Origin: Candidatus Woesebacteria bacterium
GTDB taxonomy: Bacteria; Patescibacteriota; Microgenomatia; UBA1400; UBA12028
Reading direction: 5' to 3'
Assembly (NCBI GenBank): GCA_040006915.1
Contig: JBDTWD010000002.1
Location: 42,613-106,612, forward strand
DNA length: 64,000 nt
In this document: piece by piece, positions 3,178 to 62,867 of the stretch
Layout of the letters: each line of letters opens with the position of its first letter
Numbering within the stretch: the stretch's first letter is position 1
Notes under the pieces: generated by a model
Told to the model about the DNA's origin: nothing
The model's input: only the letters and a program-made list of their open reading frames with translations
The model's database searches: none
Made by a program: the position numbers and the translations under genes

Positions 3178-5505
3178 TTATTTTCCTTGCCTATCAGCCT
3201 CAAGTACATCAGCAAGCTCGTCATGAGAGATTATTTTAATCAATTGCTGGGCTTTTTCATGCAGAGCTTCATACCTTGGCTCGAGTTGTTCATCAGTTTC
3301 AGCATCGGTCGCATTCAGCAGGCCTTTGATAAATTGAGGAATCAGACTCAATGTCTTTGTAGATAACGTTCTAGCCCTATCCGTAAGAGCTTCCATTTGC
3401 TGTCGTGCAAGTGCGATACCTGCATCTTTACGGAACTGGGTCAGAGTTGGACATCTTTGTAGGAAATCGAGTAAAAATGCACTGCGACCGCTTTCTCCTA
3501 CAACTAACATATTCCGATTTTGAAGGAAATTACGTTCAACTTCTTCCACCGTAATCCCACCCCCGTTGTAGATAGTTGCTAAGCTTTCGGCCCTTTCTCC
3601 TCGGGCGTTTTTCTCCAAAGCTGCTACAACCTTAAAGAACACTTCTGTTTCATCTCCAAATTTCGGACCGTCAACTAATATTGCATGTGTATGGTTAGGT
3701 TCAAGTAATTCGAGATCAGCAGGTTTTTGAGATGGTTCACCTCTCCAGATTTGAGGTCCTGGACAAATTCCGATTGCCTGAACATCTATACCTGCTGCAA
3801 CTAATTTCTCTCGTACTTTCCCAGCAACTTGAATGTAGCCCGAGTCTGTTCCACCCGTAACCATTACTACATTTTTACCAGCTTTTTCTAATATTTGGAC
3901 ATGCTTTACTAGGCTGTCGATGAGTTTATCTTGTTCTCCACCAGGAGCCGTGTCCATTTCTCCGGCACCCCCGTTAAAAACGAGGACATAATTATATGGA
4001 GAAACTCTCGTCTCTTTATCTATCAGTCCCAGTTCAGCTAACTGGTCTTGAACAGCTGATAAGTCAGCATCTTTCGAAATCTCACGTATCTTTATCGTTT
4101 CTTCCGATTGATTTTCTTTCTTTGCAACTGCTTCCTCTGGTATTCCACTGGGAATATCTGTCATACCATCTCCTTTTTTACTGTCTTGTAATAAGTCTGT
4201 CTGTTTTTTTTGATCTTTTTCTAGCATTCTTAATCGCGCTGTCATAGCTTGATCGACCTCCAACGGCTTTCTATTCTCATCTGGGGTTGTAATTATTTGA
4301 GGTCCTTCTGACATAGATATATCTCCAAATTCCCTTAATACTCGATCAATTTCATTGTACTCTACTCCAAGCTCTTCTCTTTTGCCACTACTTTCAATTG
4401 CTATCTTTGCTTCAACCAACACATTTTGAATTGAGCCAACGATTCGATCAATTGTTTCAGGTCGAACCGTAATACCATATTCTCCTAAGGCAAAGAGGGT
4501 CTCTTTGACGGAATGCTCTGCATACAGTCCCCACAAAGGTCTGAACATTTTCCCTTTACTCCAATCAAATGATCCTTGAATGGGAAGCTTGATGTGACGA
4601 CGGAACAAGTTCACATATCTGTCTTTAAACTTCTCTTGATCAACGATCACAAACTCACCTTCCTTGGTAATATCAGTTGCTCTCCCGAAGAGATCGATCA
4701 AATGAAAAAGCATCCTCCCCCGTTCAATCGCAATTGGATCATCAATGTTCGTTCCCATTTCTTGTTTAAAGGATTGGGTAAAAGCAGCGAATTCTTCCTC
4801 GCGGTACACATCTTCATGTTTTCCTACGATACCGGCCAGAAATCGAACGTCTTCTGTAGTAAGGATCTGTTCATCTCCTTGTCCCAAGGCAACGATTCTC
4901 TTCCCTACTGCGATTTTTTCAAAAATTTCAGCCATCACGTGTTCGTGGTCGGCTTCAATTTGAGCATTCGGGGATCCTAAAAGTTTTATCACATCATGAA
5001 GTGGAGCTGCTGCTTCTGAAAGAAGGAGCATTTGTCGGTTGGAGAGCACACTAACATGAAGTTCACGAAACCTGGCAGACATATCTCGAGCTGCTGCTGC
5101 GGTTTCTTGCAAATGCGCCAGTAACCCCCCATTTTCATTGGCAATGAGCTCAATAAAGACTTTATCTCCCTCATCGTCAAGTACATCAAGCTGGATCTGT
5201 ATACACAGTCCAGTAAGGGCTTCAACAAAATCTTCGCTAACAGGAATTTGCGCTCCTTCCATGCGAAGCCGTTTAATATTCTTTCCCATTTGTCGGCGTG
5301 CCTCCACATTTGGAAAAATAGTTTTTCCTTTTGTGGTGGTACTGGATCGCAAAAGCGTCTGTATGCGTTCTTCTTCTGCTGGAGAATAGCTCGTATCTCC
5401 ATATGTTAGGTGATAGAAAAGTTCCCATTTCGCTTGATGTATTAACTTCGAAGAGGCATCAACTTCTGCAACCATGTCTACTCCCGGCGTTTCTTTTATT
5501 GTCAT
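3178..5505 (-). CDS. Large multidomain protein (775 aa) with a C-terminal SLOG/LOG-like Rossmann domain and an N-terminal ~480 aa of unknown function
   Basis: Residues ~520-690 carry SLOG/LOG-type Gly-rich motifs: VLVFNGGAGE, VVMVTGGTDSGYIQVAGK, IGICPG, ATIYNGGGITVEEV and MLVVGESG (compare the LOG-family GGGxGLMG and PGGxGTxEE motifs). The N-terminal half has no motif I recognise. Confidence 0.6.
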   Translation of the reverse strand: MTIKETPGVDMVAEVDASSKLIHQAKWELFYHLTYGDTSYSPAEEERIQTLLRSSTTTKGKTIFPNVEARRQMGKNIKRLRMEGAQIPVSEDFVEALTGLCIQIQLDVLDDEGDKVFIELIANENGGLLAHLQETAAAARDMSARFRELHVSVLSNRQMLLLSEAAAPLHDVIKLLGSPNAQIEADHEHVMAEIFEKIAVGKRIVALGQGDEQILTTEDVRFLAGIVGKHEDVYREEEFAAFTQSFKQEMGTNIDDPIAIERGRMLFHLIDLFGRATDITKEGEFVIVDQEKFKDRYVNLFRRHIKLPIQGSFDWSKGKMFRPLWGLYAEHSVKETLFALGEYGITVRPETIDRIVGSIQNVLVEAKIAIESSGKREELGVEYNEIDRVLREFGDISMSEGPQIITTPDENRKPLEVDQAMTARLRMLEKDQKKQTDLLQDSKKGDGMTDIPSGIPEEAVAKKENQSEETIKIREISKDADLSAVQDQLAELGLIDKETRVSPYNYVLVFNGGAGEMDTAPGGEQDKLIDSLVKHVQILEKAGKNVVMVTGGTDSGYIQVAGKVREKLVAAGIDVQAIGICPGPQIWRGEPSQKPADLELLEPNHTHAILVDGPKFGDETEVFFKVVAALEKNARGERAESLATIYNGGGITVEEVERNFLQNRNMLVVGESGRSAFLLDFLQRCPTLTQFRKDAGIALARQQMEALTDRARTLSTKTLSLIPQFIKGLLNATDAETDEQLEPRYEALHEKAQQLIKIISHDELADVLEADRQGK

Positions 5506-9258: not shown

Positions 9259-10140
9259 TTATTTTTGAGCGAGCAGTACGATATTTTCCATCAGACTAAT
9301 AACAGTCACCGGTCCTACCCCCCCTGGAACTGGCGTTAAGAACACTGCCTTCGGTTCAACTGAAGTGCGTTCAATATCACCTGCAGGAGATCCGACATCA
9401 ATCACAATTGCCCCTTCTTTGACCATAGAGCCGGTGATCAGATCTTTCACCCCCACAGCTGAGATCAGAATATCTGAAGTATTCAGTATATTTTTCCCAA
9501 ACTCTTGTCGTCCAATATTGTTTACGTTGTGGCCCAATCTGCGCAGAAGCTGGGTCAGCGGTTTTCCCACAATGTCGGAGCGACCCACGACCACAACATT
9601 CTTCTGTTTCCATTCTTCTGATGAAACTTCCATTTGCATTCGCGCTTCTTCTAAGATGGACAGACAGGCTTTGGCAGTTGCTGGCAATACATTGGTCGGA
9701 GAGATTTTATTTAAATTTGCTTGTGTCAAACAATCCACATCTTTGGTTGGATCAATCGCATTCGTCAATTGTTCCCACCAGGTAGAAAATTCGTTTACTT
9801 GTCGCCGTCTGGAACTGATCTCTTGTTCCCAGACCAGTTTTGATGGTTTTTGAATCATGATTCCAGAAAGATCAGCATCAACAGAGGCTTCTCTAATTGT
9901 CTGCACAATGAGACCCAGATCCTCGGTGAGAGAAAATTCTTCGGGTTCATAGGAGATGCCAACTCTATTGGCAGCTGCCATCTTCAGTTTGGTATATAAC
10001 CTGCTCCCCTCGTCCTCATGAAAGGTAAAGGTTTTTACATGGAGATTCACTCCCAGTCTTTTCAGTTCTTGAACCTTTTGCGCCAAAACATGCTCTTTGT
10101 TTTCGGCATAGGCTTTTCCATTAAAAATTATGCATGACAT
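9259..10140 (-). CDS. folD: Bifunctional methylenetetrahydrofolate dehydrogenase/cyclohydrolase
   Basis: VVVGRSDIVGKPLTQLL...AVGVKDLITGSMVKEGAIVIDVG...PVPGGVGPVTVISLMEN matches FolD conserved blocks. Confidence 0.9.
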   Translation of the reverse strand: MSCIIFNGKAYAENKEHVLAQKVQELKRLGVNLHVKTFTFHEDEGSRLYTKLKMAAANRVGISYEPEEFSLTEDLGLIVQTIREASVDADLSGIMIQKPSKLVWEQEISSRRRQVNEFSTWWEQLTNAIDPTKDVDCLTQANLNKISPTNVLPATAKACLSILEEARMQMEVSSEEWKQKNVVVVGRSDIVGKPLTQLLRRLGHNVNNIGRQEFGKNILNTSDILISAVGVKDLITGSMVKEGAIVIDVGSPAGDIERTSVEPKAVFLTPVPGGVGPVTVISLMENIVLLAQK

Positions 10141-10987: not shown

Positions 10988-11200
10988 TTACTCCTTCTCA
11001 TCTAGATCGATAGCTTTTGCTTTTGTTTTTCCAAGTACATCAATCAATTTCCCATTTTGGATAATCATCCACCCTTTGCTTAGGGCCAATTTAATCAAAG
11101 AATCCTTTATTTCTGGCGAAAGCAAAATACTTGTTTTTGACCGTTCTGGAGCGCTTTCTTTGCGTGGAGTCATAGTGCCTCTATTGGAAACTGGGAACAC
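10988..11200 (-). CDS. Small hypothetical protein (70 aa) that fills the glyA-nfo gap
   Basis: The ORF spans the 184-nt spacer between glyA and nfo on the same strand, 3 nt from the nfo start. It has no recognisable motif. Confidence 0.35.
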   Translation of the reverse strand: MFPVSNRGTMTPRKESAPERSKTSILLSPEIKDSLIKLALSKGWMIIQNGKLIDVLGKTKAKAIDLDEKE

Positions 11201-12480
11201 AACTTTTGCACTTTCGTTGCAACTGAAAGCAAGAATGGATCAGTGTTCATTCTTTGAGCAAAAGCTTTAACAAATTCGGCTCGTTGTTTTTTGTCTTCAG
11301 GTAACTTTTCATCTTTGATGTGATCCGAAATTGCTGTTATCCATTCTGCAATATGTTCCATTTGGACTTCTTTCATTCCACGAGTCGTGACAGCTGGCGT
11401 TCCAATCCGAACTCCCGAGGGATAGAAAGGACTGGTATCTTTTGGAACTGTATTAAAGTTAGCAACTAATCCCGCAGCATTCATGGCCTTGGCAACTAAC
11501 ACCCCGTGACCACTTCCTAGCGTTGAAAAATCCAAGACCAGTAAGTGATTTTCTGTCCCATTTCCGACTTGTGATATTCCCTTGCTTTGTAAAGAAGCAG
11601 CAAGAGCTTTCGCGTTGGCAACAATCTGTTTTCCGTAACGTTTAAAGCCTTCGGTATTGGCTTCTTCCAAAGCTATAGCGATCCCCGCTGTCGTGTTATT
11701 ATGTGGGCCTCCCTGCATACCAGGTATAACAGCCATATCAATCTTTTTTACTAATTCTGGATCTTTTTTCAAACCAATTTCAGTTACCAAAATCATCGCT
11801 CCTCTTGGCCCCCGAAGGGTCTTATGGGTGGTCGTCATAATGACGTCAACGTATGGCACAGGTGACGGATGACTTCCCGCAATGATGAGTCCAACAATAT
11901 GAGAAATATCCGCAACCAAATATGCACCAACTTCATCAGCAATTTCTTTGGCTTTCTTCCAGTCCAAGATAAAGGGATGGGCAGTGGTTCCTAAAATAAT
12001 GACTTTTGGTTTGTGTTCTAGAGCCAGGGTTCGCATCTCTTCATAATTAATGCGAGCATCTGCCGTTAAGCCAAATTGAACTGAATTGTAAAATCTTCCA
12101 GAGAAGGTGACATTGGGATGTCCATGCGTTAAGTGTCCGCCCATGGATAGCTTTAAGCCCATGACGGTACTACCGGGAGCTGCCAATGCAAACAGAATTT
12201 CAGAGTTAGCTGGGCTTCCTGAATATGGTTGAACGTTCACATATGGAACACCAAAGAGTTTCTTGGCGCGTTCGACAGCCAAAGTTTCGATTTGGTCAAT
12301 AACTTCGTTTCCTTCGTAATACCTGCGACCCGGATACCCTTCCGAATATTTATTGGAAAGCATTGATCCAACTGCTCCTCTGACTGCTTTGGAGGTATAG
12401 TTTTCCGAAGGGATCAGCATTAAGGTATCGCGTTGGCGTTTTTCTTCGGCTGCTATCAAATCAAAAATTTCATCACTCAT
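11170..12480 (-). CDS. glyA: Serine hydroxymethyltransferase
   Basis: LIPSENYTSKAVRGAVGSMLSNKYSEGYPGRRYYEG is the classic SHMT N-terminus. Length 436 aa. Confidence 0.95.
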   Translation of the reverse strand: MSDEIFDLIAAEEKRQRDTLMLIPSENYTSKAVRGAVGSMLSNKYSEGYPGRRYYEGNEVIDQIETLAVERAKKLFGVPYVNVQPYSGSPANSEILFALAAPGSTVMGLKLSMGGHLTHGHPNVTFSGRFYNSVQFGLTADARINYEEMRTLALEHKPKVIILGTTAHPFILDWKKAKEIADEVGAYLVADISHIVGLIIAGSHPSPVPYVDVIMTTTHKTLRGPRGAMILVTEIGLKKDPELVKKIDMAVIPGMQGGPHNNTTAGIAIALEEANTEGFKRYGKQIVANAKALAASLQSKGISQVGNGTENHLLVLDFSTLGSGHGVLVAKAMNAAGLVANFNTVPKDTSPFYPSGVRIGTPAVTTRGMKEVQMEHIAEWITAISDHIKDEKLPEDKKQRAEFVKAFAQRMNTDPFLLSVATKVQKLCSQFPIEAL

Positions 12481-24937: not shown

Positions 24938-25972
24938 TTAACTATTTTTCCAATGCATAGCTAAATGTGGATTGGCAAACACTCCCACTGCTGACTGCAC
25001 GGCATCCACTCCAAGTGCTAGATACTGATCGATATGCTCGGGCTTAGTAACTCCGCCAATTCCAATGATGACAAAATTTTCCATTTCCAGTTCCTGGGAA
25101 AATTTGACCGCATTTTTCGCCTGTTTCAAAGATAAACCACGGACTGCACTTCCTGATACTCCTGCAGTTGGCCGATTGGGAAAAGCTTCTTTCCCATCTT
25201 TGGTAACTATACTCATTGAGTATGTATTGGTCGAAGAGATTCCAGAGATGATTCCTTTTGCTTGTTTTAGAAAAGTCTTTAACGCTTGCTGATTTTGATA
25301 ATATCCAACTTTGACTAACAACTGTTTGTCTCCGATAATATTTTTTACCTCTCCACATAGCCTGAGTGAGATCTCGATATCTTCATAGATCAATCCTTGT
25401 CCCCCATCGGTATTGGGACAAGCTAAATTCAGTTCAAAAATATGAGCAGTGGTCTCATTGGCAAGCAGCGCTAATCGTTTGGCATCCTCTATTAGGCTCT
25501 CACCTGGTTGTGGAGTACACATCAGTGACAGGATCAGTAGTTTCCCTTCAGGTAATTTAGCAACACAAGTTCCCACATCTTCTTGCCAATATTCTGGTTT
25601 AACGGATTGAATCCCAAAACTATTGGCCATCGTAGTCGTTTCAGCCGTATCAAAAGGAGTAAAACTGGCTTGCGCTTTGGGTAGAACGCTTGGATCAGAA
25701 AACTCTCCCTTTATATCAACATACTGCCAATGAGGGAACGCATTCCCACGCCACTCCAATGAACGTACACTTTTATAGGTAAAAATATCGTATCCAAGCG
25801 TACTCAAAAAAAGGATAAATCGAGAATTAACAGTGAGCGGACAGGCTGCAACGCCGAAAGGCGAATGAATGTTAAAACCTAAAAAAGTACGATGAAGATT
25901 AGCTTTGTCGGTATTCCAAAATGGACCGTAGGCAATGTTTTCCTCAAACGTTTTCGTAATGTCATACAACAT
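24938..25972 (-). CDS. pyrD: Dihydroorotate dehydrogenase (class 1-like, soluble)
   Basis: LNLACPNTDGG active-site region and FVIIGIGGV FMN-binding end. Lies in the pyr operon between pyrC and pyrE. Confidence 0.85.
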   Translation of the reverse strand: MLYDITKTFEENIAYGPFWNTDKANLHRTFLGFNIHSPFGVAACPLTVNSRFILFLSTLGYDIFTYKSVRSLEWRGNAFPHWQYVDIKGEFSDPSVLPKAQASFTPFDTAETTTMANSFGIQSVKPEYWQEDVGTCVAKLPEGKLLILSLMCTPQPGESLIEDAKRLALLANETTAHIFELNLACPNTDGGQGLIYEDIEISLRLCGEVKNIIGDKQLLVKVGYYQNQQALKTFLKQAKGIISGISSTNTYSMSIVTKDGKEAFPNRPTAGVSGSAVRGLSLKQAKNAVKFSQELEMENFVIIGIGGVTKPEHIDQYLALGVDAVQSAVGVFANPHLAMHWKNS

Positions 25973-29699: not shown

Positions 29700-30326
29700 T
29701 TACAACAGTTGTTTTTGTACAGATTTCCAAATTTCTTTCTCCACGTCGGCCAAATCCTTATTCGCATCAATAAGTACCCAGCGATCATGATCATTGACTT
29801 TGGCAAGCGACAAGTACGCTTGTCGCACATCTTCATGGAAACTCATGTTTTCCATTTCCATGCGATTTGACCCACCCGCGGCAGCTTGTCGTCCAAGTCC
29901 CGTTTTGGCATCGACATCTAAAAGTAAAGTCAAATCAGGATACGTATCTTTGGTAGAAATTTTGTTCAGTTCATCAATGAGCTCTACCCCAAACTTACGG
30001 ACCATTCCTTGATAGACCACAGAGCTATCACGAGTTCGATCCATTAACACCATTTTGTGGGCTTCAAGACTCGGGAGAACTAACTCTCGGTAGACTTGCG
30101 CTCTAGCTGCTTGAAACAAAAGTACTTCTGTTGTGTACGCAATCCCAATGTTTTTTGCCGATAAAACCACCTCTCGAATTTGCTCAGAAATCACGGTTCC
30201 CCCTGGTTCGCGAACGACAACCACATCAAATCCTTCTTTGGAAAGACGATCACGAAGCCGTACGATTTGCGTCGACTTCCCCGCACCTTCTCCACCTTCA
30301 AATGAGATCAGATATCCGTGTTTCAT
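29700..30326 (-). CDS. tmk: Thymidylate kinase
   Basis: ISFEGGEGAGKSTQ P-loop, VVVVREPGGT, DRTRDSSVVYQG (DR motif). Length 208 aa. Confidence 0.95.
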   Translation of the reverse strand: MKHGYLISFEGGEGAGKSTQIVRLRDRLSKEGFDVVVVREPGGTVISEQIREVVLSAKNIGIAYTTEVLLFQAARAQVYRELVLPSLEAHKMVLMDRTRDSSVVYQGMVRKFGVELIDELNKISTKDTYPDLTLLLDVDAKTGLGRQAAAGGSNRMEMENMSFHEDVRQAYLSLAKVNDHDRWVLIDANKDLADVEKEIWKSVQKQLL

Positions 30327-30708: not shown

Positions 30709-31002
30709 TCACTTCTTTCCATACTGCTCGGTGATGAAAGCTTTCATTCGTTCATGAACTGGCTTATTCATAATTGAGTCTTTCGGTAGAGAGGCAGTTC
30801 CCTGAGGAGCGCTAACTGATTGGTTCAGTTTAGCTGCCTCATTCCCGGCATACTGACTTGGGGTGTTCGCAAACGTATTCGGATCTAGATTCTTGATGGC
30901 AAAAGGTCGAAGTTCTTCACCATCCGGCAGTGGGTTGGCTTTAATTTTTTCTTGTAACTTCTGACGGAATTGACCTGGAACAAACTTTGACATATTTTTC
31001 AT
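30709..31002 (-). CDS. Hypothetical protein (~97 aa) immediately downstream of fic
   Basis: I placed the start at the internal Met just after the fic stop, because the ORF-track version overlaps fic by 50 nt. No anti-Fic SxxxE(G/N) motif is present. Confidence 0.4.
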   Translation of the reverse strand: MKNMSKFVPGQFRQKLQEKIKANPLPDGEELRPFAIKNLDPNTFANTPSQYAGNEAAKLNQSVSAPQGTASLPKDSIMNKPVHERMKAFITEQYGKK

Positions 31003-31006
31003 TCTA

Positions 31007-32014
31007 CTATTTTTGACTACCATTTGCAGAATACCGTACCCCTCTAGTATTCCCATGTTTCATAACGAGTCCGAGTTTTCCCAATGCCTGGATATCATAT
31101 GCCAGAGTACGTACAGGAATTTTTGGGAAACGCCTGGCAATAAAGTCAAAGGAACACAATGGATGATCTGTAATAATGGCAACGATTTCACTCCTCCTGG
31201 GTAAGAGGCTTGAGAGTGGTTTTGATCCCACACTCACACTTTCTTCTCCCACCGTTTTGATATCGGTCAGAATGTGCTCGAGAGCCCACACATATCCTTC
31301 CAACACAAACAGAGTGAACTCTTCTGCATGTCTCGTTGAACGCTCTAAGTATGCATAATATGCCGACTTATGTTCATCAAAGTACTCATCGACCGGTAAA
31401 ATGAATTTTCCAAAGAGCTTACTTTGTTTGAGCTGCCATTGAAGGAGAATCCGTCCGGTTCGTCCATTCCCATCCAAGAACGGATGCATTTTTTCGAAAT
31501 AGTAGTGAAGTCTGGCACTATCAACTATATGTTCTATAAAATCCCGCTCCTTATTGGTCTCGGTCAGCCATACGTCGAGCATAGCTTTGAGCGTATTTCG
31601 ATCAGGAGTCAAATACACCACATTTCCACCACTGTCAAAGACTCCTGACTGCTCTTGCCGTATTTTTCCAGCATCTGCATGAATACCATTCATGACAATC
31701 GCATGGATTCGCTTCAAATGTTCAATCGTAAGGGTGGTGGAGAACGTCTCAAGTTCTTGAATCGCACGATTACAGTTCTCGATTTCTCTTTTTTGAATAT
31801 CCTGTCCACTTCCCTTCTCATAGTCAGAAAAAGTCAGTTGATTCCCTTCAATACGCGCCGAGAAGAGTGAGCTTTTGAGGATCTGGCGATGAAAGATTCT
31901 TTGTGCGACCGTGGCTGAAACCGGAATAGACTCTAACACTTTAGAAAGAAACCTGATTCTTTCCAGATTTGAGGCAACAAGCGTGTTGGAAACAGGATAG
32001 GGAAATTGCAACAT
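31007..32014 (-). CDS. fic: Fic/Doc-family protein (class II Fic, intramolecular inhibitory helix) with a C-terminal winged-HTH-like region
   Basis: Canonical active-site motif HPFLDGNGRTGR. N-terminal inhibitory motif SARIEGN fits [S/T]xxxE[G/N]. Confidence 0.9.
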   Translation of the reverse strand: MLQFPYPVSNTLVASNLERIRFLSKVLESIPVSATVAQRIFHRQILKSSLFSARIEGNQLTFSDYEKGSGQDIQKREIENCNRAIQELETFSTTLTIEHLKRIHAIVMNGIHADAGKIRQEQSGVFDSGGNVVYLTPDRNTLKAMLDVWLTETNKERDFIEHIVDSARLHYYFEKMHPFLDGNGRTGRILLQWQLKQSKLFGKFILPVDEYFDEHKSAYYAYLERSTRHAEEFTLFVLEGYVWALEHILTDIKTVGEESVSVGSKPLSSLLPRRSEIVAIITDHPLCSFDFIARRFPKIPVRTLAYDIQALGKLGLVMKHGNTRGVRYSANGSQK

Positions 32015-32125: not shown

Positions 32126-33688
32126 CTATGCTGGATCTTGTTCGTACGGAGTTCCATTCTTGAGCGCATCTTCGGCTTTTTGCAGTTCTAGTCCCACATA
32201 CATCATATGTCCAGGAATACCGGAATAGTTCCAGTCGGAGATCTGCCAGGCAACCTCCTGAGCAACTCGTCCTTCAAAGATTTTCATTGCCGGCCCCCCA
32301 TTGGGTTCAAAAATCGTGGCTCGGATCATTCGGTCGTTCGTTTTAGGCAACTTGCGTAACATTCGCTCTACTGCCATCGGAACGGCTTGTGTCTCGTACC
32401 GCTTTGACCATACATCCCACATTTGTGCGTCACTTTGTTTAATCACTTCAACGACGACATTTCCTCGGGGATCAAATTCGAAGTGAACCTGAGGGGTATA
32501 CCCAAGCTCTCCTTCGTAATGCTTCATGAGAAGGTCATCGACCAAACCGAAATCGTCTGCATACATATGAGCACTATGGGTGATCATGGTTAAAGGCCCC
32601 ATCTGCATTCCAGCACTATCTGCAATATCTTTTTGCAATTTACGTAACGCAAATGTATTTCGCGGCCAGCCATGCACCATATCTTGGCTTCTGAAATGAC
32701 AAGTGAAGAAGAATTTATCGTCTTGAACAGAGCCTAATACCATGGTCAGACACGGCGTATCGCCTTTATTTGCCTCTGCCCAATCACGAACCGGATTAAT
32801 TGTAATTGCGACCATTTTTTTACTGTCTGGCCGATTTTTGAGCAATTTTTTAATTTCATCAATTTGGTTCACGCCTAAATCTTCACGTAAACGTTTACCG
32901 TAGTTATACGCTACCCCAGGGATTTGTCGCGCGGTCATCATTTCTGCGTAGTAGGCTTCAAGCTCAAAGCGTGCAAACGGTAAATATTCTGGGAAATAGA
33001 TATCTTCAGGATTTTCATCAGTAATGACTGCGGTTAAATTCAACACTTCCTTCAAACTATTATCTTTACTGTATCGTGTATGTTTGGGTCTGCCATACTT
33101 TGATATCTCATTTAAAAGTTTAAGCCAGGTCTTTGCAACTTTGGGTGATGAGACACGAAAGCCTGTCTGTTCACTCGGTAACAACTGTACTTTCGGTTCG
33201 CTTCTCGGGAATTCACGACGACGCTTGGCGAATGGTTCAATAGTTTTTTCAGAGAGCTCACGAGCTTTGGCGATAAAATCTGCACCACTCTTGCCCCGAC
33301 AATCAACGACGGCAACCATTTCAGCGAATTCTTTCAAGATTTCATCCGGAAGTTCGGCTTCAATCTCTCCTCTAGCGCCAACGATTCGACGATTCTCATC
33401 CACTCCTTTTTCCACCAACATTTTAAGGGCTTGTCCTGATTGACTCATCTCTGCTCCCCAAATCAAGATTACACGAATGTGAGGATTCGCAAAGATATTA
33501 CGAATCATGGCATTGATCCCTTGCGCAGAATACAAATTACCAATCGTGTTGTACTCCACATCCTTTAGCAACCCCTCAACGGCTTGTCGCTCAGTCCAGA
33601 GGCAGCAAATAGCGAGATGATGTTTAGGATTTTTGACTTTGAGAACGTCTTTATAAAAGAGGGGCCAATTTTTTACATCAATGGGCAT
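32126..33688 (-). CDS. Extended thymidylate-synthase-fold protein (ThyA/dCMP-hydroxymethylase superfamily), 520 aa with large extra segments
   Basis: NQIDEIKKLLKNRPDSKKMVAITINP resembles DQLxxVIxxIKxNPxxRRxIxxAWNP. TPCLTMVLGSV resembles the catalytic PCH..QFYV block. FRSQDMVHGWPRNTFALRKL resembles YQRSxDxxLGVPFNIASYALL. The protein is about twice normal TS length. Confidence 0.6.
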   Translation of the reverse strand: MPIDVKNWPLFYKDVLKVKNPKHHLAICCLWTERQAVEGLLKDVEYNTIGNLYSAQGINAMIRNIFANPHIRVILIWGAEMSQSGQALKMLVEKGVDENRRIVGARGEIEAELPDEILKEFAEMVAVVDCRGKSGADFIAKARELSEKTIEPFAKRRREFPRSEPKVQLLPSEQTGFRVSSPKVAKTWLKLLNEISKYGRPKHTRYSKDNSLKEVLNLTAVITDENPEDIYFPEYLPFARFELEAYYAEMMTARQIPGVAYNYGKRLREDLGVNQIDEIKKLLKNRPDSKKMVAITINPVRDWAEANKGDTPCLTMVLGSVQDDKFFFTCHFRSQDMVHGWPRNTFALRKLQKDIADSAGMQMGPLTMITHSAHMYADDFGLVDDLLMKHYEGELGYTPQVHFEFDPRGNVVVEVIKQSDAQMWDVWSKRYETQAVPMAVERMLRKLPKTNDRMIRATIFEPNGGPAMKIFEGRVAQEVAWQISDWNYSGIPGHMMYVGLELQKAEDALKNGTPYEQDPA

Positions 33689-41163: not shown

Positions 41164-42633
41164 GTGAAAAAAATATTTTGCATCGTTCTTTTACTTCTTT
41201 GCTCTTTTATCCGTCCCCAACCGGCACTCGCAGCTGTTGCCAGTTCCCCTCATTTGGTCATAAATTTTTCCGAAATGACGCTCCTTGATTGGACTGTACC
41301 AGAGGAACAATGGCAAACTGAGCTCAGACCAAAGATCGAAGCTCAAATCAAGGAGATGAAAGCTGCGGTGATGTCCAATCAACGATCACCAGAGGGAGCT
41401 ATTCTCACTTGGTCTACTCTCATGGAGTATATGAATACTCCTATGGACGCCCCTTCAGAACATTCTCCCTATGCCATCAAGATGCGTCGGATCCTCGAAA
41501 TAGCTGAAGATTTGGATTTCCCAGTCTTTGTGCCTTTAAATGGTTTTCAGTGGTGGGATGAATTACCAGAACTGTATAACTGGTGGGACTCTGATGGAAC
41601 CCACACTGATCCCAAGTTTTTTGCTCGGCAAAAAGATCCAGCCGACTTTAAGCGTCGATTCATAGCCGGATACAATCCAGACAACAAATGGAATGTGGCT
41701 TGGCAAGATGCACAAACTCCAATGAAGTTAAATTTCCGCAACTGGGGTGGAGGGGGATTCGTGCTCGCTCCTCCACCAAATTTAACCGACAACACAAAAG
41801 CTCCTCTGAGTTACCGTAAACTGCAGTTTGAACGACAACGTGTCATCGTTCAGGAGATTGTAAAAAAACATGTCCAATGGAAAGCGGAAGGAAAAGAGTA
41901 TTTATTTGCCGGACTCACCATCGGAACAGAAATCTCTTTGAACGCTTCAGTCACTCCCAAAGACGAATTCAAATCATATGGAGGATCGGAGAAGGTTGCA
42001 GTGGTCTCTACATATTTGGAAACCAACGCACAATTTATTATGCGTTCTGGAATCCCAAAAGATTTAATTTATGCCCATGTGTTAGGAGAACAAGAAAAAA
42101 ATGATCCCCACTACAGTGGAATTGCTCCCGCAGCTTTTAATTTATATTCCAGTCCAGCCACAAGTTTGTATGGGTTTGCCGAAAATCCGCTGGCTTCTTC
42201 CGTTTGGAAAAATGTCATAGTTCAGAACGGAAATCCAAACTGGGGAGCGGTTGAATACACCTCCTCACCCACCCTTTCGGGCCTTACAACAACCTTTGCC
42301 AGCGCGCATATCGTGGATATATATAACTGGGATCAAATGAAAGGAACCAGTAGCGTTCAAACTGTTAAAACATTTTTGAAGGCCCCCGTGAAAACGGACA
42401 ACTGCGAAGTTAAAAGTTCAGTCATCCATACTCAACGCGGTTTACTCGCCAAACTTTCGAATCCCGATTTAAATCCAGGTGAATTGGGTCATGGAATCTA
42501 TGTTAGATTTACGGAAGATATCTGTGCGAATGGGAATAGAAAATACAGTGAACCAGAAACATTCTATATCCCTCTTCCCTCACCCGTTGATACGACTCCC
42601 CAATGGGTGAAATGGTTTCTTGGCCATTTCTGA
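41164..42633 (+). CDS. Secreted hypothetical protein (489 aa) with an N-terminal signal peptide
   Basis: MKKIFCIVLLLLCSFIRPQPALAAV is a signal peptide. It contains a segment AILTWSTLMEYMNT that is paralogous to the next gene. Confidence 0.6.
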   Translation: MKKIFCIVLLLLCSFIRPQPALAAVASSPHLVINFSEMTLLDWTVPEEQWQTELRPKIEAQIKEMKAAVMSNQRSPEGAILTWSTLMEYMNTPMDAPSEHSPYAIKMRRILEIAEDLDFPVFVPLNGFQWWDELPELYNWWDSDGTHTDPKFFARQKDPADFKRRFIAGYNPDNKWNVAWQDAQTPMKLNFRNWGGGGFVLAPPPNLTDNTKAPLSYRKLQFERQRVIVQEIVKKHVQWKAEGKEYLFAGLTIGTEISLNASVTPKDEFKSYGGSEKVAVVSTYLETNAQFIMRSGIPKDLIYAHVLGEQEKNDPHYSGIAPAAFNLYSSPATSLYGFAENPLASSVWKNVIVQNGNPNWGAVEYTSSPTLSGLTTTFASAHIVDIYNWDQMKGTSSVQTVKTFLKAPVKTDNCEVKSSVIHTQRGLLAKLSNPDLNPGELGHGIYVRFTEDICANGNRKYSEPETFYIPLPSPVDTTPQWVKWFLGHF

Positions 42634-60743: not shown

Positions 60744-61342
60744 AACCTATTTTTATTTGCTAAACGAATCCTCAGCCACATAAGCAGACGCATGACAATG
60801 ACGACGGCAATAAAGATCGTTTCCAATAGACTTAGTGATGGGAGTGTTTTCATTCCTCCGTTATACCAAGTCATCCAACGAGCCGATTTGAGGAGTACCA
60901 CATGAGCCGCTACAAATAGCATCGCGATATAGCCAGCTCGTAGAATTCGTCTCCACTTCTGCACTCCAATTCGAACCATGGCCGAGCGACTAGAGATCAG
61001 CGCCATGATACTAAAAATACCTGTGGCGAAAAGGCCTGTCACTGGGGCGGGAGCTACTCTGAGCGCTGAAAAAGACAGTGCGACATGAACGAGAGCAAAT
61101 GCGAATCCGATTAAACCCAACTGTTTTCGATACATTATTTTTGAATCAAAGAGATTAAAAAAATAGGCGAGGCTAGAAAGCCACATCGATAATCCAATAA
61201 GAATAATTGAGGTGTCAGCCATTCCTTTGTTGAGGAGGTTTGGTGTTTTGAGATAACTATTATATCCATAACTGAATCCGTAGATGATGAATCCAAAGAT
61301 CAGTACTTTTAGATAAGGCCAAAGTTCTTTATTTACTTTCAT
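60740..61342 (-). CDS. Ferric-reductase-domain / MsrQ (YedZ)-like polytopic membrane protein (putative b-heme binding)
   Basis: 200 aa with ~6 TM helices. Conserved His in adjacent helices (LIGFAFALVHVALSF and YIAMLFVAAHVVLLK) preceded by Arg, as in the FRD/MsrQ heme ligation pattern. Coupled by 14 nt to the VKOR-DHODH gene and by 4 nt to the next gene. Confidence 0.5.
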   Translation of the reverse strand: MKVNKELWPYLKVLIFGFIIYGFSYGYNSYLKTPNLLNKGMADTSIILIGLSMWLSSLAYFFNLFDSKIMYRKQLGLIGFAFALVHVALSFSALRVAPAPVTGLFATGIFSIMALISSRSAMVRIGVQKWRRILRAGYIAMLFVAAHVVLLKSARWMTWYNGGMKTLPSLSLLETIFIAVVIVMRLLMWLRIRLANKNRF

Positions 61343-62867
61343 ACATTGTTCCTTTTCCGTTGTCGACAGTTTTATATGTTAAGTACTGATTAATTTCTCC
61401 GATCAACTGTGGTCCCTCATAGATCATCCCTGTAATCAGCTGAACAAGATTAGCACCAAGTTTCATTTTTTCTGTCGCATCCTGCGGGGAGAAAATTCCT
61501 CCCGTTCCGATGATCACGAAGCGTTCTTTAAAGTGCTTTTTTGTGAGGATAATCGCATGGTTGGAGCGATTCCAAGTTGGTTTCCCACTGACATTTCCTG
61601 CCCGATCTTTCCACAATGCACGGTCTTGGACGTTGACATCAGGATTATTTTTATCCTTTGTTAGATTTCCAAAGACGACTCCAGCAATTTGATGGTGAGC
61701 TGCAGTAGTGAGAAGTAAAAGTGTTTCTGTATCACTTAAATCGATGGGCATTTTGATAAAAACTGGTTTCTTACTTTTCAGTTTATCCAACCGGCTAAGT
61801 AAACGTTCAAGACGGTCGCCTGTGGTAAAAGGTTGCCCTCCGCTCAAGTTTGGACAACTAATATTGAGTTCATAATAGCTGTGTCGTACATTACTTTGTT
61901 CGAAAAGATAAAACGTTTGCAAAATATCATCAATTTGTGTCATCAAGGTCGTGTACTTCTTGTTTGTACTACCAATACTAATTCCAATTGGGATTGTAAA
62001 GTTTTTATTGGATAGTCTTGCAATGATGACTTTGGCTCCGCTACTTTTGAATCCTTTGTTCACCAACAGTGCTTGTGATCTGGGGAACCTGCTAAGTCTT
62101 GGTTTTGTATTTCCACCATATGGTTCAAGCGTCACGGTTCCAATCGTCGCGAAACCAAATCCGACACTCGGTAAAATGTCTGTGAGCTGCCCATCATAAT
62201 CAAACCCTGCCGACAATCCGACTGGATTAGGAAATGAAATTCCTGCAATTTTCTTTGACAGCTTCGGATGAGAAAAATAAAAAAGAATTTTAGTTAAAAA
62301 GCGTGTGATTGAAAATTTTCCAAGGAAGATTCCTATCTCTGTCATACGATTATGTACAAATTCAGCATCGAGCAAAAAGAAGATTGGTTTACAAATCTGT
62401 ACATAGAAGAAATGAAAGAGATTCCGTTTACGTACAGTGAGAAAAAGTGGAATACAGATTGAAAACAGCAAAAAACTACTTAATGCTGAACCAACACAAT
62501 ACAGGCACCACGCATTCAAAACGAAAGCCATTACGAAAACAAGATAGAGAGAAAAGAGGAAACCACCAGTCGTCAGGACGAGTAAAAAATCTTGTGCTCT
62601 CTCTGAGGCATCAAGAAAAACAAGAATCGCTACGGTTAAAATCGTGGCGTAATACACTATTCCAATTGCAGAGAGTGGTACAGGTCCCACATGTGACCAC
62701 GGGCTGCTCAAAACCCTGCCGCAGTCAAATGGAGGTTGGCACGATGGGACGATCCCAGATAACTCACTCCAAGTCATGTATGACGTATCCAAAAGACCTA
62801 AGAAAGCGATAATCACAATCGCTAGTTTAAAAAACAGAGAATATCGCGGCATTTTTACAGTATACAA
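61329..62867 (-). CDS. Fusion protein: N-terminal VKOR (vitamin K epoxide reductase) membrane domain plus class-2 (membrane/quinone-type) dihydroorotate dehydrogenase
   Basis: VKOR part: loop Cys pair SCQPPFDCGRVLSSPWSHVGPVPLSAIG and active-site CxxC at a TM start (NAWCLYCVGS). DHODH part: class-2 N-terminal helices YVQICKPIFFLLDAEF, GLSAGFDYDGQ, ELNISCPNLSGG, IIGTGGIFSPQDATEKMKLGANLVQLITGMIYEGPQL. Confidence 0.75.
   Translation of the reverse strand: MYTVKMPRYSLFFKLAIVIIAFLGLLDTSYMTWSELSGIVPSCQPPFDCGRVLSSPWSHVGPVPLSAIGIVYYATILTVAILVFLDASERAQDFLLVLTTGGFLFSLYLVFVMAFVLNAWCLYCVGSALSSFLLFSICIPLFLTVRKRNLFHFFYVQICKPIFFLLDAEFVHNRMTEIGIFLGKFSITRFLTKILFYFSHPKLSKKIAGISFPNPVGLSAGFDYDGQLTDILPSVGFGFATIGTVTLEPYGGNTKPRLSRFPRSQALLVNKGFKSSGAKVIIARLSNKNFTIPIGISIGSTNKKYTTLMTQIDDILQTFYLFEQSNVRHSYYELNISCPNLSGGQPFTTGDRLERLLSRLDKLKSKKPVFIKMPIDLSDTETLLLLTTAAHHQIAGVVFGNLTKDKNNPDVNVQDRALWKDRAGNVSGKPTWNRSNHAIILTKKHFKERFVIIGTGGIFSPQDATEKMKLGANLVQLITGMIYEGPQLIGEINQYLTYKTVDNGKGTMYESK

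Follow-up and report, generated by a model that had tools for sequence, protein, structure and literature searches.

What is made by a 520-amino-acid (aa) protein that carries the active-site motifs of a thymidylate synthase (TS) in the middle of its chain? The question is raised by a contig of Candidatus Woesebacteria (assembly GCA_040006915.1, contig JBDTWD010000002.1), of which we analysed a stretch of 64,000 nucleotides (positions 42,613 to 106,612), hereafter the window. The gene occupies positions 32126..33688 on the minus strand of the window, with an ATG start and a TAG stop in the list of open reading frames (ORFs). A first-pass annotation had described its product as a double-length TS fold with extra N- and C-terminal segments, and had left two options for its function: a divergent dTMP synthase or a C5-hydroxymethylase for DNA hypermodification. 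The ORF is found where that annotation placed it and contains both of its TS motifs, TPCLT (aa 311-315) and FRSQDMVHGWPRNTFAL (aa 332-348). The extended fold did not hold, as the TS fold is confined to about aa 180-395, less than the length of canonical ThyA. Because the extra length consists of two unrelated domains, the premise of an extended TS was wrong. The protein consists of a short archaeal-type TS core with an MtrA-like domain that lacks the cobalt ligands on its N-terminal side and a DUF4346 domain on its C-terminal side. We suggest that the gene probably encodes the cell's ThyA-type thymidylate synthase in this three-domain form, producing dTMP, given the conserved active-site residues and the conserved operon context.

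The 520-aa protein has a 100% identical counterpart at NCBI, from a "Candidatus Woesebacteria" metagenome-assembled genome, and this entry carries the Pfam families PF04208, PF00303 and PF14251. Among the matches listed, 120 relatives of 58-87% identity span the whole of the protein and keep all three domains. The ORF is thus a real, conserved gene and not a chance reading frame. Base composition is even along the 64-kb window. Databases label relatives of the fusion automatically as 'thymidylate synthase', 'DUF4346 domain-containing protein' or 'hypothetical protein', and a literature search found no relevant paper on the MtrA-TS fusion architecture, DUF4346, PF14251, slr0651, MJ0757 or AfhB.

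Pfam, NCBIfam, PDB and Foldseek all divide the protein into three unrelated domains, on which grounds the extended TS fold was rejected. The N-terminal part (aa 1-175; 33164..33688, minus strand) is an MtrA-like Rossmann domain with a linker, lacking the cobalt-ligating residues of MtrA. It was recognised by Pfam (MtrA, aa 17-148, 47.2 bits against a cutoff of 25, E 2.6e-12), by a PDB sequence search in which aa 56-150 matched MtrA structures (5laa, E 9e-13), and by Foldseek (TMt 0.76 to MtrA 5laa). The short methanogen-type TS core follows (aa 180-395; 32504..33151, minus strand). Its relationship to the ThyA superfamily, claimed at first pass, was borne out by Pfam Thymidylat_synt (PF00303; aa 263-391, 49 bits against a cutoff of 24.3), by the NCBIfam profile TIGR03283 and by the PDB search, where aa 245-390 matched many ThyA and hydroxymethylase structures. 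Foldseek matched the core to many TS-fold structures with a probability of 1.00, including ThyA, T4 dCMP hydroxymethylase (dCH), the CMP hydroxymethylase MilA and AfhB, the last three being the best matches (TMt 0.54-0.73). The C-terminal part (aa 400-520; 32129..32491, minus strand) is a PterinBD-DUF4346 domain (PF14251; aa 465-518, 40.9 bits against a cutoff of 29.6), with a two-helix insertion at about aa 420-450 that is specific to the Candidate Phyla Radiation (CPR) and an invariant tail, YxQDPA. An AlphaFold (AF2) model built from a 30-sequence alignment had a mean predicted local distance difference test score (pLDDT) of 74 and a predicted template modelling score (pTM) of 0.56. Its N- and C-terminal domains were confident, the former at a pLDDT of about 80-95.

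The TS core aligned to TIGR03283, the profile of methanogen-type ThyA, over profile positions 4-198 of 201 with 137.2 bits, while distant and viral relatives scored 115-162 bits. Residue equivalences come from HMMER alignments with solved ThyA structures and with the E. coli enzyme. The E. coli sequence, which we take to be correct, served as a numbering ruler only, and its landmark residues land at the textbook positions. Cys313 in TPCLT (32750..32752, minus strand) corresponds to the catalytic nucleophile Cys146 of E. coli, and P312 to P145. Profile and structure alignments place the TS signature R333-S334-Q-D336-x3-G-W-P-R-N344 at 32657..32692 (minus strand), where R333-S334-Q-D336 corresponds to R166-S167-C-D169 and G340-W-P342-R-N344 to G173-L-P175-F-N177. 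In ThyA, R166 and S167 bind the phosphate of dUMP. Further equivalences are H374/Y376 with H207/Y209, Tyr261 with Tyr94, and D-S-K290-K291 with D-S-R126-R127. Cys313, the RSxD signature and Asn344 are invariant in 30 CPR relatives, four distant relatives (28-55% identity) and 15 viral relatives. The presence of Asn344 at the N177 position indicates that the substrate is probably a uracil nucleotide. AfhB, a flavin-dependent phage dCMP hydroxylase with a TS fold (PDB 9iqu, 9iqc), lacks the D169/N177 signature, with RSQNCAVVMQLD against RSQDMVHGWPRN in the fusion.

The profile alignment reaches residues 108-213 of E. coli ThyA only. Like the methanogen-type profile, the core has neither the folate-contacting segment with Trp80/Trp83 nor the C-terminal strands and the tail that closes the active site in ThyA. 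The helix-B equivalent and Tyr261 are about 11 residues apart, compared with about 35 in E. coli, and the chain passes into DUF4346 just past the Tyr209 equivalent, where the TIGR03283 profile also ends. The invariant C-terminal YxQDPA was considered as a ThyA-like active-site tail and found unsupported, as DUF4346 ends shortly after QD in every context. No structure of the short methanogen-type ThyA subfamily was found in the PDB. In the window and in every related locus, the fusion gene was the only match to E. coli ThyA, with no second TS. The first-pass annotation had held that an end-to-end alignment with known long-form archaeal or CPR ThyA, together with complementation of thyA, would make the protein an ordinary TS. 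This was borne out in part: it does align end to end with hundreds of CPR proteins that are automatically annotated as TS, none of which is characterised.

Gene context was counted in the 76 loci that hold the full fusion gene, out of 79 related loci. A dCTP deaminase gene (dcd) lies immediately upstream on the same strand in 42 of the 76 (median gap -74 bp), and a thymidylate kinase gene (tmk) is found downstream on the same strand in 48. A haloacid dehalogenase (HAD) hydrolase gene is near the fusion in 30 loci, a deoxynucleoside kinase gene (dNK) in 21 and a thymidine kinase gene (tdk) in 14, while in 15 the gene immediately upstream encodes a ribonucleotide reductase (RNR). P0143, a distant relative of 36% identity, has a tmk that overlaps the 3' end of its fusion gene within a ribosomal-protein cluster. 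This context points to the fusion holding the position of a thyA, in which dcd leads to dUMP/dUTP, TS to dTMP and tmk to dTDP. The tmk of the window lies downstream on the minus strand (29700..30326; PF02223, E 6e-42) and would consume the predicted product dTMP. Also on the minus strand are glyA, encoding serine hydroxymethyltransferase (SHMT), the supplier of 5,10-methylene-tetrahydrofolate (11170..12480; Pfam SHMT, E 7e-139), and folD, encoding methylene-tetrahydrofolate dehydrogenase/cyclohydrolase (9259..10140; PF02882 and PF00763). With glyA, folD and fmt all encoded in the window, the organism possesses both a folate-type C1 pool and the means to make 5,10-methylene-H4folate enzymatically. 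Of the two functions proposed at first pass, the divergent dTMP synthase is therefore the supported one: the catalytic residues with their Asn, the conserved dcd-TS-tmk context and the glyA and folD genes of the window all favour it.

Two of these neighbours have unusual forms. The downstream tmk of many relatives (e.g. locus L009, 13055-13960) has an extra N-terminal stretch of about 80 aa that Pfam does not recognise. The upstream RNR in the 15 CPR loci (e.g. locus L021, 6552-8747) is a 731-aa protein with an ATP-cone, a barrel and a C-terminal zinc-finger-like CxxC...CxxC tail, a form that suggests a B12-dependent class II enzyme.

If the protein works as a ThyA-type synthase, dUMP would be bound by Arg333/Ser334, with Asn344 recognising its uracil, and would be attacked at C6 by Cys313. 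The resulting C5 carbanion would accept the methylene group of 5,10-methylene-tetrahydrofolate, provided by the SHMT encoded in the window. Reduction of the methylene to a methyl group would yield dTMP, to be phosphorylated by the downstream thymidylate kinase. The MtrA-like domain would no longer bind cobalamin in the manner of MtrA. Instead, it may form, with DUF4346, an accessory module that aids binding or positioning of the pterin cofactor. Such a module may make up for two folate-contacting segments missing from the short core, the C-terminal tail and the loop with Trp80/Trp83.

DUF4346 is rare, as an exhaustive profile search of 1.84 billion representatives returned only 174 clusters. 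We scored the domain make-up of the DUF4346 representatives with our own domain profiles. All three domains were present in 33 (435-786 aa), 33 others appeared to combine TS with DUF4346, six combined MtrA with DUF4346 without TS, and 81 were short proteins with DUF4346 only. The apparent TS+DUF4346 proteins are all ≤368 aa and come from short contigs, so that they are likely fragments, probably truncated at the N-terminus, and we rejected this two-domain architecture as an artefact. Three domains were found in 33 of the 34 DUF4346 representatives of at least 400 aa. In full-length TS proteins, DUF4346 is always accompanied by the MtrA-like domain. One 515-aa DUF4346 protein is of the archaeal 'dihydropteroate synthase-like' TIGR00284 type, and its barrel is matched slightly better by a methyl-folate:corrinoid methyltransferase model than by dihydropteroate synthase (DHPS). 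The MtrA+DUF4346 proteins match NCBIfam NF002128 over both domains.

The motif DPxG(N/Y)(F/W)...HAxYxGxELxKAE...YxQD is common to DUF4346 in all contexts. The fusion carries DPRGN, H494-x2-Y-x-G-x-E-L and Y-x-Q-D, the same as in the stand-alone, MtrA-linked and DHPS-like-linked copies. Conserved residues of the accessory domains include Tyr53, Ser54, Asn59, Arg63, Asn64, Asn68 and Glu112 in the N-terminal domain and Asp406, His494, Glu501, Gln517 and Asp518 in the C-terminal one. The partners of DUF4346 are thus a corrinoid-binding domain, a pterin-binding barrel or the His-less MtrA-TS unit. The most economical history would have a short TS entering between the two domains of an MtrA-DUF4346 protein, the MtrA part of which afterwards lost its cobalt ligands.

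Some members of the family are less regular. The TS-less MtrA+DUF4346 proteins (P0192, P0229, P0245 and P0160; locus L080, 5089-6216) come from the anaerobic Firmicutes Sedimentibacter and Proteiniclasticum, are annotated as MtrA or DUF4346 and keep all cobalamin ligands, with a Cys-rich N-terminal region in some. P0225 (394 aa) has the N-terminal domain and DUF4346, with a middle region that does not match the TS profile. A 786-aa protein of Abditibacteriota, P0147/P0272 (locus L084, 6715-9075), contains two stretches of DUF4346 and matches the TS profile faintly. Nothing informative emerged from the gene contexts of P0160 and P0128.

The corrinoid site of MtrA is known in detail (PMC4915002). 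His84 ligates the cobalt and is held by a hydrogen bond to Glu54. The side chains of the corrin are contacted by Asn55 and by the main chain of residue 82. The nucleotide tail is contacted by Asp17-N, Lys52-N, Thr53, Gly57-O and Asn64, and its base (5,6-dimethylbenzimidazole, DMB) is sandwiched by Tyr18 and Val61. In every TS fusion, whether from CPR, distant bacteria or viruses, Tyr18, Glu54, Asn55, Gly83 and His84 are lost. Ala or Ser takes the Glu54 position, and His84 falls in a two-residue deletion of the fusion in both HMMER and MAFFT alignments. Ser/Thr53, Gly57, a hydrophobic residue at 61 and Asn64 of the nucleotide-tail pocket are kept. The TS-less MtrA+DUF4346 proteins provide an internal control, as they retain E17-Y18, T53-E54-N55 and G83-H84. 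With the cobalt and corrin contacts gone from all TS fusions, the domain thus has the MtrA fold but probably not the MtrA mode of holding cobalt. Its retained pocket may still take a His-off corrinoid or some other nucleotide-like ligand.

A nearby histidine was also considered. Position 86 of the fusion (33431..33433, minus strand) aligns to MtrA Gln88 and not to the ligand His84, and among the 120 relatives listed it is His in 115, Gln in two, Tyr in two and Phe in one. It is Gln in the protein studied here and in one 86% identical relative, and Tyr or Phe in three others. In distant three-domain relatives it is Q, V, K or absent. His86 as a cobalt ligand was rejected on these column counts, on the distant relatives and on two independent alignments that equate it with MtrA Gln88.

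The fusion is widespread. At least 534 species-representative genomes have a relative. Among the matches listed, the hosts are Microgenomates-type CPR (Woese-, Gottesman-, Chisholm-, Beckwith-, Cerri- and Pacebacteria) and Chloroflexota, the latter at 41-45% identity. Record titles for loci L001-L079 often read 'uncultured Pseudomonadales' or 'uncultured Gammaproteobacteria', and in one case 'Nanoarchaeia' or 'Ktedonobacter racemifer'; such titles seem to be placeholders or misassignments and not the true taxonomy. Three-domain relatives of 26-33% identity are also encoded on 82 uncultivated viral contigs from IMG/VR, many of them 50-200 kb long. The protein is absent from all 50,697 GenBank phage records searched. 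These viral proteins (470-540 aa; loci L085-L161, e.g. L125 7947-9476 and L086 7947-9512) have the same N-terminal domain and TS core and a divergent DUF4346, with the catalytic Cys, the RSxD...WPxN signature and the Asn intact. Their genes adjoin RNR large- and small-subunit genes, a RusA-like resolvase gene and structural-looking genes. Nothing about the viral copies points to a cytosine substrate or to linked hypermodification genes. As the same three domains recur in viral contigs, the three-domain unit therefore behaves as a portable module.

Several points weigh against a ThyA-type synthase with a pterin-handling accessory pair. The AF2 model of the TS core is only moderately confident (pLDDT about 50-85), and with its pTM of 0.56 the model does not give the inter-domain geometry. 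Enzymatic work on methanogen-type ThyA reportedly amounts to one partial study from 1994. The TIGR03283 score of 137.2 bits is below the curated cutoff of 174.55, so the core is not a TIGR03283 equivalog. The Arg126'/Arg127' pair, contributed by the partner subunit in ThyA, is replaced by Lys-Lys here and by Ala-Ser in the phage proteins and reads RR, RG or KS in distant relatives. As there is no conserved equivalent of Arg21 either, the details of phosphate binding must differ. That the accessory pair handles the pterin cofactor is our best guess, weakly inferred. Asn64, Gly57 and the hydrophobic residue 61 of the nucleotide-tail pocket are retained in the MtrA-like domain. Since corrinoid iron-sulfur proteins bind B12 without a protein ligand (PMC4915002), loss of the His ligand alone does not exclude His-off corrinoid binding. 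The biochemistry and cofactor use of archaeal-type ThyA are, moreover, essentially uncharacterised (PMC9012536, PMC9931769).

The accessory domains could alternatively make the enzyme independent of dihydrofolate reductase (DHFR). They would bind a redox cofactor, supply reductant or re-reduce dihydrofolate in situ, so that tetrahydrofolate is left intact as in ThyX or recycled as in DHFR-TS, and folA is not needed. Pfam scans found neither DHFR nor ThyX families among the window genes. Three DHFR probe sequences and a small profile made from them gave a best E of 0.27 in the window and 1.14 Mb of flanks of the 79 loci, where no ThyX RHR motif was seen either, and there was no DHFR match in the flanks of 77 viral loci. 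Covering the window and flanks and resting on a few probes, this absence of folA is suggestive only. A published survey also speaks for this reading: of 4,581 CPR genomes, 54.8% have folA, compared with 81.3% for glyA and 79.7% for folD, and canonical thyA is often syntenic with folA (PMC11974145). The presence of the whole unit on the 82 viral contigs would suit the tendency of phages to carry self-sufficient modules, and the N-terminal domain is flavodoxin/Rossmann-like with a conserved pocket. However, neither accessory domain has an NAD(P)H, flavin or Fe-S motif or a conserved Cys, and no redox-functional structural relative of DUF4346 was found. The conserved Asp336, equivalent to the pterin contact D169, fits ordinary ThyA hydride transfer from folate. 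We consider a DHFR-independent enzyme quite unlikely. The FolP-linked DHFR substitute of Halobacterium and Helicobacter could not be connected to DUF4346 through the literature.

The ancestry of the accessory pair raises another explanation, a corrinoid-dependent enzyme in which the MtrA-like domain holds a His-off cobamide for methyl or electron transfer to dUMP. The N-terminal domain is homologous to B12-binding MtrA and keeps the nucleotide-tail pocket (Gly57, Asn64, hydrophobic 61 and Ser/Thr53), but every TS fusion has lost His84, Glu54, Asn55, Gly83 and the DMB-stacking Tyr18, the His84 loop is two residues shorter, and the nearby position of His86 varies freely (Q, Y, F, V or K). The ancestral MtrA+DUF4346 module retains its B12 ligands, and DUF4346 also occurs joined to the MeTr/DHPS-like pterin barrel, the counterpart of the corrinoid domain in a pterin:corrinoid methyltransferase. 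The fusion itself has no pterin:corrinoid methyltransferase or Fe-S domain to reload or reduce a corrinoid. A putative B12-dependent RNR adjoins the gene in 15 CPR loci. Pfam scans of the window genes found no metF for methyl-folate, and Asp336, the ThyA pterin contact, is kept. A corrinoid-dependent enzyme is thus very improbable.

Least probable of all is the other option of the first-pass annotation, a dUMP (or dCMP) C5-hydroxymethylase or other base modifier for DNA hypermodification, for which we found no positive support. T4 dCH, MilA and AfhB are among the nearest solved structures, the family occurs on 82 uncultivated viral contigs and sequence does not reliably separate methylases from hydroxymethylases, but the base-specificity Asn in all members, viral ones included, excludes a dCMP-type Asp and with it a dCMP substrate, the family keeps the D169/N177 signature that AfhB has lost, the place between dcd and tmk is that of a housekeeping thyA, no other TS candidate is nearby, the gene is conserved in at least 534 cellular species genomes, and no glycosyl- or modification-transferase genes recur in cellular or viral neighbourhoods.

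A ThyA-type synthase making dTMP thus probably remains the best description of the gene. Thymidylate synthesis is essential and a major drug target, and only two kinds of enzyme are thought to carry it out, the DHFR-requiring ThyA and ThyX. A large part of one CPR superclade, together with some Chloroflexota and a set of uncultivated phages, would use a ThyA core without two of its folate-binding elements. In full-length proteins, this short core is always placed between two conserved domains derived from a corrinoid-protein module. It is unlikely, in our view, that the accessory pair gives the core a new cofactor logic, in which a held pterin, redox or nucleotide-like cofactor makes a separate dihydrofolate reductase unnecessary. 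If it did, this would be a third mechanistic kind of TS beside ThyA and ThyX, common to CPR, Chloroflexota and phages. A function for the accessory domains would help to fill the knowledge gap on archaeal-type TS, would give DUF4346 its first function and could show why folA is dispensable in many CPR genomes that have glyA and folD. If the pair is only structural, the outcome is an annotation correction, to 'three-domain ThyA' in place of 'extended TS' or 'MtrA'.

The wider window is a nucleotide-metabolism island. The first-pass annotation had described the neighbourhood as dominated by nucleoside-salvage genes, and tdk, tmk, dNK and the HD protein are all found, together with pyr genes. On the same strand as the fusion are Fic, tmk, upp, pyrB, pyrC, pyrD-like, pyrE-like, pyrF and tdk, with dNK, guaA, glyA and folD farther along and fmt elsewhere. 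The adjacent Fic-domain gene (31007..32014, minus strand; Pfam Fic, E 3.6e-18) lies between TS and tmk. That it neighbours the TS gene held up, as it starts 111 bp downstream on the same strand; the arrangement is not conserved, however, with Fic a neighbour in only three of the 79 related loci. The adjacency is thus incidental, and the Fic gene is probably not functionally linked to TS. Two motifs mark the Fic protein, HPFLDGNGRTGR of the active site (aa 177) and SARIEG (aa 52), an N-terminal motif of the inhibitory type, and their combination suggests an auto-inhibited AMPylase rather than a toxin encoded as part of a gene pair. A 115-aa ORF without a family match (30709-31056, minus strand) overlaps the 3' end of the Fic gene.

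Three other genes of the window stand out. At 61329-62867 (minus strand), a 512-aa fusion joins an N-terminal vitamin K epoxide reductase (VKOR) domain (PF07884) to a full dihydroorotate dehydrogenase (PF01180), a quinone-handling domain being unusual on this enzyme. A second, weaker DHO_dh-like gene is found within the pyr cluster at 24938-25972. Beside rpsB and tsf, the gene at 3178-5505 (minus strand) encodes a 775-aa protein with a prokaryotic SLOG/LSDAT domain (PF18171).

How does the three-domain protein compare with known systems? By its fold and catalytic residues, it is classed here as a member of the ThyA superfamily that scores below the TIGR03283 cutoff and lacks the cobalt ligands of MtrA. 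With T4 dCH, MilA and AfhB it shares the compact TS fold. These enzymes act on cytosine nucleotides and have neither the MtrA-like nor the DUF4346 domain, and T4 dCH and MilA have Asp at the N177 position, where the fusion family always has Asn. With MtrA, the cobalamin-binding subunit of methyl-tetrahydromethanopterin:coenzyme M methyltransferase, and its cytoplasmic homologues (PF04208; 5laa, 5l8x), it shares the Rossmann-like fold, the xNxxxNP motif of helix alpha2, Gly57 and Asn64. Unlike MtrA, the fusion has no transmembrane helix and its domain is N-terminal and joined to TS; Pfam scans found no other mtr genes among the window genes. The TS-less MtrA+DUF4346 proteins have the same domain order and the same DUF4346 motif, but they lack TS and have intact corrinoid ligands. 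The archaeal DHPS-like+DUF4346 proteins (TIGR00284) carry the same C-terminal DUF4346 motif and also lack TS.

The protozoan bifunctional DHFR-TS (PDB 2h2q, 3qgt) is likewise a chain of about 520 aa in which TS is joined to an alpha/beta domain of folate metabolism, and it offers an analogy for an accessory domain that serves cofactor recycling. Homology is confined to the TS core, which in the fusion belongs to another subfamily and lies mid-chain instead of at the C-terminus, and the 520-aa protein has no Pfam match to a DHFR domain (PF00186). The best-matching TS subfamily is the methanogen-type short ThyA (TIGR03283), of which we take the MJ0757-type protein to be an example. It has the same deletions relative to bacterial ThyA. 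Its members are stand-alone proteins of about 200 aa in archaea using methanopterin-type carriers, whereas the protein described here is a 520-aa fusion in a folate-type bacterium. Canonical ThyA (EC 2.1.1.45; PF00303; E. coli, B. subtilis) is about 264-320 aa long, has Arg126'/Arg127' and lacks flanking MtrA-like and DUF4346 domains. The fusion has both domains, Lys-Lys in place of the arginines, and a core of about 215 aa without the Trp80/Trp83 segment, the C-terminal beta-strands and the tail. What the two have in common is the fold, the Pro-Cys pair, Arg166-Ser167-x-Asp169, Asn177, Tyr94 and His207/Tyr209, as well as a position in a deoxynucleotide operon beside tmk and dcd.

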